Position numbers and translations under genes: made by a program
Assembly: GCA_964016885.1 (NCBI GenBank)
Contig: OZ024742.1
Span: forward strand, 134,106,001 to 134,170,000
Direction: 5' to 3'
Source of the DNA: Eledone cirrhosa
Taxonomy: Eukaryota
Length of the DNA: 64,000 nt
In this document: positions 153 through 61,824 of the stretch, in pieces
How the letters are laid out: the number at the start of each line of letters is the position of its first letter
Numbering within the stretch: the first letter of the stretch is position 1
Notes under the pieces: model-generated
The model's input: the letters and a program-made list of their open reading frames with translations, nothing else
The model's database searches: none
What the model was told of the DNA's origin: nothing

Positions 153-210
153 ATACTATGAACATTTCAATGACCGGGTTCAGTATGAATCCGGTTATAT
201 CATCAGGTAT
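153..210 (-). ncRNA. Type I hammerhead ribozyme
   Basis: Minus strand: atac CTGATGA tata accggattca tac tgaacccggt catt GAAA tgttca TA gtat. Stem I atac/gtat, long stem II, AUA cleavage triplet. Confidence 0.8.
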
Positions 211-790
211 TCAAAATATAACAAAGGAATATAACAGATAAAATCCATGGGGCTGAACATCAGAGACAAGAGGATGACCGACTATTTAGCAGCTTCTACC
301 TCAGTCGGCCGCCCTCAAGTGTTGATTATTAAGTCTACTTATGACCATCTGTTGATGGGCGCAAGCTTATAATGTGCTACTACCTTCCCGTCAAAGAGAA
401 ATGTCAGCATTGAGGTCATGCCACAATAAAGTTGACTATGCGTGCTAGAAATTACCGCGAAAAATGTTTTTTCCAAATAACATATATCTTTAACAAAGGT
501 ATATATAGTGGGCGCCTGTATGGTATAATGTGTGGACAGAAACTTCGGTTAGCAATTAGAAACGTTAAACTTATGTTTAGAGTTATATGATGAAATAAAA
601 TTTAATATTTGGGTTGTGAGATTTAGTTAAAGAATTTACAGAAATAGTCTTTTATGAAAAAGTTTAAGTGTATTATAGATAGTCTCGATAAGTTTTCAGG
701 GTAGGATATATAGTAAAGATTAAGCCCTTGTTTAGCAGTCAATAACCAGCGACGACTGCAGACCCTGGCCAGACCTCCCTAACCACGTGT

Positions 791-1245
791 CAGCCGTTCC
801 GAGTAATATCGTCTAGCGAAAGAAATGGAAATGGGAAGCACTCCAGGAATGTAACTGTCTTAGGCGTCGGGTGTGTAAGCGGGAAGTCAGCCATCGCCGT
901 CAGGCCATCGTTTATACCAAACGAATACTATTAATTCACACAGGAGGGGAATTTAGTTACATGCCACTAGGGGGAGGCATGATACAGCTAATAGTTATGA
1001 TTAAGCCTATAATTTAAAGGTACTATTTGGCGGTCAAATCCGGCAGCGCGGCGAGTTCCAAGTCCGACTGGGCCCCGGGGCGAAGCAGCCGTTCCGAGTA
1101 ATTTCGATTACCGTAAGGAGGGGAAATTTAATTTTCAAAGCATTCAAGGAAGTCTTATCAACCCGAGTGCGTGGCGTGCAGTCGGGAAAGCCGCCACATC
1201 CATCGGATCATCGCGTGTTACCAAACGATTATTATATATTCACAC
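791..1245. repeat. Diverged ~295 bp-period duplication inside the 2 kb element
   Basis: cagccgttccgagtaat at 791 and 1086; taccaaacga..ta...attcacac at ~915-940 and ~1219-1245. Confidence 0.75.
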
Positions 1246-2190
1246 CCGTGATGTGAAGTTGGAAGTGGTAAAACCCGATGTAATGCGCAAATAGACTATA
1301 TTTAGTCACCAGTTAATCCGGGTTATAAGTAGTGTGGTTCTTGGGTGGGTAGGGGGAGTGAATAAAGATAAACAGATATGAGGGTACAGAGAGTAATATT
1401 CTAGGGCCGTGTGCTAATGAGCACAGTGATTAGTATATAATGTGAGTAAAGCGAGTAGATAAATAGCTAAATAGAAGGAATAATAAGCAAAATAAATAAA
1501 TAAAAAGCAAAATACAAAAATACAAATACATACATACAGATACATAAATAAAACGCCGTCATAACTAGGGTGGTGATGGAGTAAAACGGAAGTATATAAG
1601 AACATATCGGAGAAATCAAAACACAGGGGAAATACAATATAGATCAAGGTGTAGTTGGATAATACAATGTTATACATATAGATATAGAGGATGGACGAGA
1701 TGGAATGGTATCAGATGATACATAGTGTATGTTCGAGTCTCAGAAATCAATGTGAATCACAACGGCGCTGAAGTATAGGATAGAGAATTCAGTCAATACA
1801 ATACAACTCATAGTATAATACGTAGAATGTTGTCGGAGTCTGAATATTCCCGACAGGGAAGCAGCAGTGGACCAGGTGGGCGGTAGACAAAATCCGAATG
1901 TTGTGTAGATCAGTTAGTCCCATGCTGGCGAAAGCTGTACACTGGAGTCAGTGCCGCTGTTCATTATTACAACTGAAAGCCCTCGACATTTCTGGAGCAT
2001 TATTTATTTAGGGTTGTTGGTTCGCCATTGGATAGAACTGTTCATTCCGTATGGCCAATCTCGATGTAATATTATGGAGAGCACTCAACGTAATGCAACT
2101 CACCTGTTTTCGTTTGTGTAGTTGGTGGTGCGAGTACGGAGTTAATTATTATAGGAGGCTGGACCGGTGTAAATCCTTGAAAGGTTTATT

Positions 2191-2248
2191 ATACTATGAA
2201 CATTTCAATGACTGGGTTCAGTATGAATCCGGTTATATCATCAGGTAT
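2191..2248 (-). ncRNA. Type I hammerhead ribozyme (second copy)
   Basis: Same motif as 153-210, with one stem II substitution. Confidence 0.8.
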
Positions 2249-2924
2249 TCAAAATATAACAAAGGAATATAACAGATAAAATCCATGGGGCTGAAAATCA
2301 GAGACAAGAGGACGACCGACTATTTAGCAGCATCTACCTCAGTCGGCCGCCCTCGAATGTCGATTATTAAGTCGACTTATGAGCATCTGGTCATGCCACA
2401 ATCAGGCTGCCTATGCGTGCTAGAAATTGCCGCGAAACATCTTTTTTCCAAAGAACTTATATCTTCAACAAAGGCATATATATATATATATATATATATA
2501 TATATATAGGGAGAGAGAGAGAGGGAGAGAGAGAGAGAGAGAGAGAGAGAGAGAGAGAGAGAGAGAGAGAGAGAGAGAGAGAGAGAGAGAGAGAGAAGAG
2601 GGTGTGTGAGATAGAGATAGAGAGAGAGCGAATGAGAGAAAAATGATCCTGCGAGTAAGCTCTTGCGAATCGGGAGTAACAAGGCCTTCCCCTTCACGAT
2701 AATATATACATATTTAAACTCTATTCCGGTATGGAATAATTTTTCGCAAGTCAATCAAAGTCACACACACAGATATTCACACACACCTACGCACGCATAT
2801 AAATATATATATATGTATATGATGTTATAGAGTATGGCCATTGCACGATATACCATTATTAATAATTATTAATTCTATCGTACAATGCCTGTGCGTGAAG
2901 ATATGTTTTAAAGTGAGGAAAGAC

Positions 2925-58739: not shown

Positions 58740-58805
58740 TATTTCATTATATATATTTCAGGGATATCATATTAACAATATGTTATGCCTTCCTCAGACA
58801 AAATA
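58740..58805 (-). ncRNA. Type I hammerhead ribozyme (5' pLTR)
   Basis: Identical to 54856-54921, about 180 nt upstream of the ATG. Confidence 0.8.
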
Positions 58806-61468
58806 CAATATAGACAGTTTTATAGATAAATAGATTTGACATACCGTTCAACATCGACTTGTATTTGAAAAAGTTGATTTGGCAGTGAAAAATTGTAAAC
58901 AGAAAGAAAGAAAGAAAGAAAGAAGGAAAGAAAGAAAGAAAACGAAGAAAAAGAAGAAAAAGAAGAAATGCATGCAACAAAATAGAGAGATGGAAAGATA
59001 GATAAAGAGAAGAACTTCATGTAAAGAAACAGAGAGAGATATATATAGAGAGAGGAAATAGATAGAGATAGATATATATAGAGAAAAGTAGGTAGTTGAA
59101 CATCCGTTGAATGAACGTATCAATGATACATTTATTTATTTATTTATTTAGCTCTAGTATTAATGTAAGGGAGATATATGTGGTTAGGAAAGAAACCAGC
59201 CGTTATATAGAGAGAAAAATGAAAAGTAACCAGACATAGGCGAGGCAGAATTTAAAAACCCTATGTTTTAATGTAGAAATATTAGTTCGTATAAAAACCA
59301 GGCACTATAATGTAAATATCAGTATTCCTGAATGAGACACGTATCCATAATGTGTGAAAAGTAATGATCTTATGTCTAGTTTTAAAAATTCATATGTTTA
59401 TATGATAACTACAAACATCGATGTGAATTTACGTGATCAACTCTGCAAACCCCTATTTCACACGGAGAACATTCTCATTGTGCTATAAAAATTTAAGTAT
59501 ACATATATGTGTATATATACACATATATATAGAGTCTATATTAATTTTAACAATACTATTCTTGTCTTTACTCTACATGATTATCTATCAAGCAGAAATA
59601 GAGACAGATTTCAATATATTAATAAAAAATATCAGAAACAAAAACAAAAAATAATAATAATAATAATAATAATAATAATAATGAACAAATAAATGTCCGT
59701 TAAATAACAACTGCTTAGTTAAAAATATAATATACAACTGTAATGTTAAAACGGACTCTAATTCTTTTAACTACGTCAGTTCCACATCGACGGAATTTAA
59801 ACTTCGCTATAATAACCACAAGAATTCTTTCACAGATCCAAGCAAAAAATCTTCAACAGCACTATCAGGCGTACTCTGGCAACTTAGGCAAGATAACGTT
59901 AGATATTTGACGGCTTGGAATATAGTCTCAAGAGGGATTCCTTTTAATTCATCCTCTGAGACATGTGACCTCTGCGCGGAGGAGATATTCTTTATACTAA
60001 AATCTAAAAATTCCCTTAATCTACGGACAAATTTATTCAGTTGCTGCAAACATAGATTGAACTCAACTTTTAAATATAAATTTAAATTTAAAATGTAGTA
60101 TATTTAGTTTGATTTATAATTATTTGGGAAACTAGCCGATAAATCTTTCGATTTCTTCTTTTTATTCTTCTTTTTATTTTTATTTTTATTTAAACATTCT
60201 TCATGAAAAATTAAACTACCCTAAAAGTTGATGCTCCAAATATATCGAATAAACGTTACACTAGATAAACTTCTATATTAAATATAAGAACATATGTAGA
60301 CCAAATGGGCATCCTAAACTTTTTGAAATGATTTCTGCTAGACGCGATTTGGTAAATCATTTTTAATTTTTAGCTTTATCTGTTTTCGACTCTGATGCTT
60401 ATAATGAACTTGGCAATATATTGTCAATTAATTTTGAAGGGTTGATCTTTGTGGTCGATTTGCGTGGCATATTATGTTTCTATTATGTTTTTATTTTTAT
60501 TATTTTAATATTTTTTAATATTTTTAATATTTTTATTTTTAATATGTAATATTTTTTAGTTTTCTATTTTATTTATTTGTTTATTATTATTATTATTATT
60601 ATTATTATTATTATTTTTTGTTTTTGTTTCTGATATTTTTTATTAATATATTGAAATCTGTTCTCTATTTCTGCTTGATAGATAATCATGTAGAGTAAAG
60701 ACAAGAATAGTATTGTTAAAATTAATATAGACTCTATATATATGTGTATATATACACATATATGTATACTTAAATTTTTATAGCACAATGAGAATGTTCT
60801 CCGTGTGAAATAGGGGTTTGCAGAGTTGATCACGTAAATTCACATTGATGTTTGTAGTTATCATATAAACATATGAATTTTTAAAACTAGACATAAGATC
60901 ATTACTTTTCACACATTATGGATACGTGTCTCATTCAGGAATACTGATATTTACATTATAGTGCCTGGTTTTTATACGAACTAATATTTCTACATTAAAA
61001 CATAGGGTTTTTAAATTCTGCCTCGCCTATGTCTGGTTACTTTTCATTTTTCTCTCTATATAACGGCTGGTTTCTTTCCTAACCACATATATCTCCCTTA
61101 CATTAATACTAGAGCTAAATAAATAAATAAATAAATAAATGTATCATTGATACGTTCATTCAACGGATGTTCAACTACCTACTTTTCTCTATATATATCT
61201 ATCTCTATCTATTTCCTCTCTCTATATATATCTCTCTCTGTTTCTTTACATGAAGTTCTTCTCTTTATCTATCTTTCCATCTCTCTATTTTGTTGCATGC
61301 ATTTCTTCTTTTTCTTCTTTTTCTTCGTTTTCTTTCTTTCTTTCCTTCTTTCTTTCTTTCTTTCTTTCTTTCTGTTTACAATTTTTCACTGCCAAATCAA
61401 CTTTTTCAAATACAAGTCGATGTTGAACGGTATGTCAAATCTATTTATCTATAAAACTGTCTATATTG

Positions 61469-61534
61469 TATTTTGTCTGAGGAAGGCATAACATATTGTT
61501 AATATGATATCCCTGAAATATATATAATGAAATA
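61469..61534 (+). ncRNA. Type I hammerhead ribozyme (inverted copy)
   Basis: tattttgt CTGAGGA ... GAAA tatata TA atgaaata on the plus strand. Confidence 0.8.
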
Positions 61535-61758
61535 GATATGGTTTTATAAATATAGTTTCCATTTATTTAATATCGTAAATATACTCCAAATACTTGTTGA
61601 GTGCTTTTATATCATTTATAAATATTTACTAGTTGTAACCCAACAATTTAAATATAACTTTCCATATATATATATATATATATATATATATATATATATA
61701 TATATAAATATATATACAATATATTAACAAATGGAAACTATATCTATAAAACCATATT

Positions 61759-61824
61759 TATTTTATTATATATATTTCAAGGGCCACCAAGGCAAATCAT
61801 GATGCGCTTTCATCAGATAAAACA
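61759..61824 (-). ncRNA. Type I hammerhead ribozyme of a sister PLE family (element end from ~61718)
   Basis: Minus: tgttttat CTGATGA aag cgcatca...tggtggc cctt GAAA tatata TA ataaaata. Flanks homologous to 54817-54875, stem II replaced. Confidence 0.8.

Follow-up and report, generated by a model that had tools for sequence, protein, structure and literature searches.

The 64-kb window of the Eledone cirrhosa genome analysed here (G000:C3:134106001-134170000 of a 3.0-Gb assembly; "the window" denotes this whole stretch) contains many minimal type I hammerhead ribozymes (HHRs) located in the terminal repeats of Penelope-like elements (PLEs). These HHRs fall into families, lie near GIY-YIG endonuclease (EN) open reading frames (ORFs) and occur in tandem or inverted layouts. 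The short segment between GAAA and UH that forms stem III, hereafter the key, is usually self-complementary, and the likely reason, to which we assign a probability of about 0.75, is that identical tandem copies must pair with each other to cut. The paired-palindrome arrangement itself has already been described: published PLE HHRs have a palindromic helix III, with inactive monomers and weakly active dimers (PMC4209133, PMC6765202, PMC6466107). A further idea, that selection has made the key a family-specific code for telling self from non-self, is not supported by our data; the key is probably not a selected family password.

A strict descriptor (exact CTGANGA, GAAA and UH, stem I of at least 4 bp, folded stem II, unconstrained stem III) matched the window 10 times, compared with 0-2 matches (mean, 0.4) per shuffle in 20 dinucleotide shuffles. 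Tallying relaxed scans and alignments to genomic relatives, we found in this microsatellite-rich sequence (35% GC) 17 minimal type I HHRs whose cores are intact (two are U3-A8 variants) plus about 11 that are decayed or partial; together they represent roughly 17 PLE families. The counts of a previous sequence-only reading, which listed about 12 well-formed and about 10 decayed motifs from at least eight families, therefore hold. Across 134 evenly spaced 10-kb stretches of the genome (1.34 Mb), 147 strict matches were obtained against 8 and 12 in shuffles; this rate, about 7 per 64 kb, makes the density of the window ordinary for the genome. Extrapolation gives a genome total of about 3 × 10^5 such motifs, or one in roughly every 10 kb, and a whole-genome exact-pattern count for 6-nt keys gave 106,940 matches versus 6,687 for the reversed pattern. 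An Rfam scan (E ≤ 10) returned no hammerhead family among the best 150 of 162 rows and is uninformative for minimal HHRs, its matches being microsatellite-driven and of the miRNA type; a general repeat search of the window was also dominated by microsatellites.

The motifs of the window carry the core CUGANGA, GAAA and UH, or its U3-A8 variant, together with an open-ended stem I, as in type I, and a paired stem II that covaries between families according to per-family pair tallies. In hammerhead numbering (A15.1, U16.1, G10.1-C11.1), the G10.1-C11.1 pair with an extra nucleotide before stem II is confined to some families; in the commonest groups, A-U, G.U or U.U takes the place of the pair. 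This pair is named as a common feature outside the published descriptor (PMC4209133), so its absence marks a variant. Additionally, a C.C or C.U mismatch recurs at the fourth pair of stem II (window positions 206, 5066, 33379, 54913 and 61816); it is found in 41/42, 39/42, 14/15 and 9/10 members of diverged groups, with covarying adjacent pairs, and is possibly a tertiary contact.

Perfect Watson-Crick keys were carried by 67 of the 107 randomly sampled copies belonging to multi-locus families, as opposed to 3.6% of 2,782 control windows. When G.U pairs were included, the figures rose to 86/107 and 8.2%, respectively; the palindromy noted in the sequence-only reading is real. Self-complementary keys characterized 21 of 30 multi-locus clusters, and the innermost key pair was complementary in 18/21 families against 0.39 expected per pair. 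For keys of 4-6 nt, a forced monomer hairpin is predicted to be unfavourable (+2.4 to +6 kcal), and most homodimers are predicted to be favourable. In diverged families, the key was steadier than its flanks (1/78 vs 14/156; 1/72 vs 11/216). As for genomic context, HHRs at sampled loci were located 1.0-2.0 kb downstream of related GIY-YIG endonucleases on the same strand; a same-strand motif lay within 2.2 kb in 14 of the 49 EN matches listed, a figure that probably includes a few chance cases and does not cover every family. On the basis of these sequence features, the assignment of the window HHRs to PLE-associated minimal type I ribozymes, with a self-complementary stem III apparently suited to dimer cleavage, is supported.

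With dimer-dependent cleavage taken from the literature (PMC4209133, PMC6765202), we propose that a transcript through tandem terminal repeats would carry two identical motifs, which likely exchange strands to form a stem III of 8 bp or similar and two cross-copy stems I. Cleavage of this dimer would release unit-length RNA for reverse transcription, a role proposed in PMC4209133. Because the partners would be identical, a palindrome would be demanded. In such a dimer, A15.1 of copy 1 would pair with U16.1 of copy 2, and chain connectivity would then force stem I to form between the copies as well. Since any self-complementary word should work, keys could drift by wobble or compensatory steps (TATATA, TATGTA, TACGTA, TGCGTA and TGCGCA all occur), and family specificity would be a by-product of descent, set jointly by stems I and III. 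Same-strand tandems are present in both the window and the sample. Within 6 kb, and bounded by the edges of the 10-kb stretches, about 19 of 136 sampled copies had a same-strand relative (24 initial calls, 5 of which were overlapping alternatives), 42 had inverted relatives only and 70 had none; most copies are thus solo or inverted fragments that would be inactive fossils.

The relation between keys and families was assessed with nearest-neighbour energies for 23 clusters, i.e., 253 pairs, with one representative per cluster. The remaining seven of the 30 clusters lack a closing pair in their key; they were excluded from this comparison and still counted in the 21/30 above; five have TTGANAA cores, most have a weak stem I, and most are probably chance matches within repeats. 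A stable mixed stem III is predicted to be impossible for 242/253 pairs, so the earlier statement that the key differs by family stands to that extent; it fails in that keys are reused by unrelated families and vary within families. Three pairs of unrelated clusters have identical keys (TATATA, CTAG and CCGG; the TATATA family unrelated to C has stem I ACTGC/GCAGT), compared with 2.1-3.7 for random palindromes of the same lengths, and 11/253 pairs are predicted to be key-compatible versus 3.7-6.9 under the null, with P(null ≤ observed) of 0.93-1.0 at low power. Being at or above the null, the compatible pairs indicate no over-dispersion of keys. Nor is it supported that a common key suffices for mutual activation: stem I is predicted to be incompatible in 7 of the 11 key-compatible pairs, and, since the topology of the dimer suggests that stem I is also exchanged, a shared key would be insufficient. 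Cross-activation had likewise been suggested for two TATATA families; C and D are indeed predicted to be compatible in stems III and I, but they are sisters: three of the four TATATA motifs are repeats within one insertion and the fourth is 80% identical to them over 177 nt.

Keys also varied within families. In one family, TATATA was found in 25/42 copies and TATGTA in 15/42, and the mixed duplex is predicted to be as stable as each homoduplex. In family A, TGTTCA is present in 453 of 5,910 copies and is linked to an amplified sub-lineage; linked changes mark a separate TGTTCA sub-lineage in all eight sequences that passed the length filter from 15 loci. Two of the three family A copies of the window, missing from the list of the sequence-only reading, also carry this non-palindromic key, and that pair (206 and 2244) is on the main family A background. 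One stem I, TATTTTAT/ATAAAATA, is common to the two groups with the most members, TATATA/TATGTA (30 copies in the sample) and TGCGCA (11), which only the key sets apart; together they account for 72,714 exact matches versus 4 for the control. Among the first 100 matches listed, read by eye, TGCGCA occurred 40 times, TATGTA 29, TATATA 23, TACGTA 2 and TACGCA 2, with one each of TGCGTA, TATGCA, TGTGCA and TGTGTA; the infrequent keys could be private mutations, and all steps of the wobble path from TATATA to TGCGCA occur in this set. The endonucleases beside TATATA and TGCGCA motifs are about 45% identical, which implies ample time for key drift.

If the keys were a self/non-self code under diversifying selection, with different palindromes ensuring that only own copies trigger cleavage, one could point to the incompatibility of most cluster pairs, to the two most abundant groups with their single stem I, and to the dimer initiation site (DIS) of HIV-1, whose palindromes are a precedent for palindrome-based partner choice (PMC8472981). 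The number of compatible pairs relative to the null, the polymorphism of keys within families, and the divergence of the endonucleases, which leaves time for drift, argue against such a code, as does the finding that, of the five pairs cross-compatible in stem I, where a key could make a difference, four are also key-compatible; we regard it as improbable. A narrower version, in which the two dominant PLE lineages kept stem I and stem III was driven by selection to orthogonal palindromes (TATATA/TATGTA vs TGCGCA), seems to us equally doubtful. In literature searches, no title or abstract opening dealt with a stem III code specific to families; full texts or supplements outside that scope may already contain tables of keys or tests of mixed dimers.

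It is also unlikely that the HHRs are largely vestigial passengers, their palindrome being inherited with little current function or their cleavage being protein-dependent and lax on stem III. Imperfect keys (TGTTCA, GAAC and TATGTA) have been amplified, Naiad PLEs have spread without canonical HHRs, and HHRs parasitising PLEs were considered by the authors of that study (PMC8557442). Nevertheless, about 20 clusters have kept self-complementarity over many sequences and over lengths of 2-10 nt, and they tolerate wobbles or symmetric central mismatches as variants, which implies continuing selection on master elements. An ordinary stem III hairpin within the monomer is the least probable of the alternatives and would surprise us: longer keys (CTAATTAG, CCACTGG and CAGAGTTCTG) are predicted to form near-neutral or favourable hairpins (+1.5 to -1.8 kcal), and CCCTAAGGG could close a 3-nt loop, yet the central pairs of 2-6-nt keys, impossible in a hairpin, are complementary in most families. 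Pairing between identical copies thus remains our preferred explanation, and the following weighs against it. Minimal HHR dimers have low activity in vitro (PMC4209133), which would also suit vestigial ribozymes; in three less diverged families, key conservation was no higher than that of the flanks; the GAAC homodimer (18/28 in its cluster) is predicted to be unfavourable (+2.4 kcal), and monomer folding is possible for 7-10-nt keys, which together suggest that not every family needs a dimer. The over-dispersion test, with its 23 single representatives and calculated energies, has low power. Finally, the keys of the two largest groups are orthogonal despite the shared stem I (mixed duplex, +5.3 kcal; homoduplexes, -3.2 and -10.5 kcal), one case that drift allows and does not predict.

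One host, element C (54807-61669), is a PLE with minus-strand reverse transcriptase (RT) and linker-EN pieces and flanking repeats with HHRs; it ends at (TA)n and is accompanied by a truncated copy in inverted orientation. Its RT piece contains DKT, seen as SDKTN in the ORF, as well as D..YYSSI, MGS and YRDD, which we take to be the further RT motifs. DKT and the CxCx5C motif of the linker agree with the description of the Hydra clade (PMC8557442), and judging by these motifs, element C is a Hydra-type RT/GIY-YIG PLE. Pfam gave no match for the Hydra-type RT/EN ORFs of the window, a PDB sequence search gave 0 matches, and one homologue of 741 aa had 38% identity. Family A, with 5,910 exact flank matches genome-wide, is likely a non-autonomous PLE: no tblastn match to the RT/EN of the window was obtained in its region, and no coding ORF was found in its body. 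On the minus strand of the body, 750-945 and 1050-1250 form an internal duplication of roughly 170 nt that is about 70% identical and includes conserved blocks. Neither an ORF nor a consistent consensus fold was found in it; the blocks perhaps act as promoter elements or bind proteins. A GC-rich hairpin (270-320, minus strand) lying upstream of the family A HHR appears, by eye, to be paired across sub-lineages.

Table 1. Hammerhead motifs and host-element features of the window (pLTR, pseudo-long terminal repeat)
Feature	Position	Strand	Remarks
Family A element	144..2482	-	About 2.04-kb unit, partial tandem, ends at (TA)n
HHR family A, key TGTTCA	153..210	-	Predicted cut after 157
HHR family A, key TGTTCA	2191..2248	-	Predicted cut after 2195; on the same strand, the 157 site lies 2038 nt downstream
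HHR-like motif, long stem II, key TATA	4478..4573	-	Stem I 3 bp; one relative in sampled L021; weaker
HHR family B, key TGCGCA	5004..5074	-	
Inverted family B copy, decayed	5145..5214	+	GAAT
Decayed HHR, GAAC-key family	7404..7452	+	Ends approximate
Decayed HHR, key CG	19176..19214	+	Damaged core; family core CTGATGA
HHR, key TAATTA	19502..19589	-	
Inverted pair of GAAC-key HHRs	20995..21160		Both damaged; 21031 minus, 21120 plus
Decayed HHR, long stem II	26245..26362	+	Relative's key CTCGAG; ends approximate
HHR, 78-nt stem II, key CAATTG	33034..33145	+	One stem I mismatch
HHR family A, key TGATCA	33326..33383	-	
HHR of CG-key family	38166..38201	+	TG here
U3-A8 variant HHR, key CCAG	41238..41274	+	Family key CCGG; about 450 nt downstream of GIY-YIG remnant 40475-40792
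HHR of decayed PLE (42030-47565, inverted arms)	42083..42155	-	Key TATGTG; CATGTG in two relatives
U3-A8 variant HHR, key CATAGCTCTG	47172..47216	-	Relatives CAGAGCTCTG/CAGAGTTCTG
TAGCTA site, not hammerhead	47337..47350	+	
Decayed HHR, family key CTAATTAG	48523..48600	+	CTAATTAT in this copy; partial copy 48042-48136
HHR, key CACTG	48805..48849	-	G-C closed stem II
HHR family C, key TATATA, downstream pLTR	54856..54921	-	Then about 50 nt and (TA)n; predicted cut site 54864
Linker + GIY-YIG endonuclease ORF piece	56387..57286	-	CxCx5C motif (CNCRDRSKC)
PLE reverse transcriptase ORF piece (DKT, D..YYSSI, MGS, YRDD)	57317..58585	-	Different frame from EN piece
HHR family C, key TATATA, upstream pLTR	58740..58805	-	3,884 nt from downstream copy, same strand; predicted cut site 58748
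Inverted 5'-truncated copy of element C	59690..61669	+	HHR 61469-61534, TATATA
HHR D, key TATATA	61759..61824	-	80% identical to its sister C over 177 nt
Decayed HHR, family key CCCTAAGGG	62033..62112	+	Partial copy at 62718

Most keys assigned in the sequence-only reading were recovered, i.e., TGATCA (33326), TGCGCA (5004), the four TATATA (54856, 58740, 61469 and 61759), CAATTG (33034), which belongs to a real family, and CG (19176), a decayed copy of a real family that reads TTTC-CTGATGA...GAAA-CG-TC-GAAA. Two were rejected. CTTAAG (48518) resulted from a register error, since it comes after another GAAA, within the 3' strand of stem I (ACTCC/GGAGT); in this family, stem II already closes ahead of the first GAAA (48582), which makes CTAATTAG the family key. 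TAGCTA (47341) is not in a hammerhead: the core reads CTGATTA, stem I does not form, and two other copies read TAGCGA; the real motif nearby, a U3-A8 variant, is on the minus strand at 47212.

Several other repeats were observed. Fragments with inverted junctions at 23289-23514 and 25257-25497 (sites 23368, 23398 and 25337), containing GAAACAGTTC, resemble halves of another hammerhead family, and 31315-32007 is another remnant of a related PLE endonuclease. Pieces of RVT_1 and C2H2 zinc fingers mark a decayed non-LTR (long terminal repeat) retrotransposon at 49638-52855 on the minus strand. Two dispersed repeat families resembling short interspersed elements lack HHRs, one at 2882-3275, 30105-30624 and 53248-53627, the other at 15562-15762, 23847-24039, 43141-43348 and 54379-54581. 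Outside the window, two sampled loci (L189:6864-8156 and L125:6638-7694) are retrozyme-like tandem arrays with units of 430 and 528 nt, one HHR per unit and the keys CTAG and CTAATTAG.

This genome offers a natural library, of very large size, of an already known ribozyme variant. It supplies matched as well as mismatched pairs with which the dimer model and the role of HHRs in PLE retrotransposition can be examined, and its natural orthogonal pairs could serve RNA engineering. If selection for orthogonality were true, self-recognition of transposon families would be encoded in RNA pairing; for the two dominant lineages (>70,000 copies), it would mean that neither triggers or sequesters the ribozyme of the other in host or element transcripts, a ribozyme character displacement.

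The dimer-initiation palindromes of HIV-1, GCGCGC and GUGCAC, are also six bases long with mutually incompatible variants, and they join separate viral genomes through a kissing loop whose effect on recombination has been measured (PMC8472981); here, in contrast, each motif probably pairs with another copy in one transcript, and no selection for incompatibility was seen. Non-LTR retrozymes (PMC7229834; bioRxiv 10.64898/2026.07.22.740005) are non-coding HHR units in tandem, likely derived from PLEs, and the sample contains retrozyme-like arrays with units of 430-700 nt; the family A unit differs in its length of about 2 kb and its minimal HHR. Element C shares with the C-terminal-EN PLEs of the Hydra clade (Craig et al. 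2021, PMC8557442) the CxCx5C linker, DKT, the order RT then GIY-YIG, an HHR in the pLTR, a (TA)n target and a tandem plus inverted truncated copy, although it is split into two frames and was matched by motifs. The closest counterparts are the minimal HHRs of PLEs described by Cervera and De la Peña (2014, PMC4209133), which are also of type I, with a small or absent palindromic helix III, a long helix II, a U3-A8 core variant and many consensus families per genome, and whose copies, sited in pLTRs, are mostly solo or inverted. Compared with them, E. cirrhosa has more than 100,000 exact pattern matches, versus 2,000-9,000 in the genomes of that study; its stem II, of up to about 80 nt, often has A-U or U.U at its base in place of G10.1-C11.1 and recurrently carries C.C or C.U at the fourth pair.

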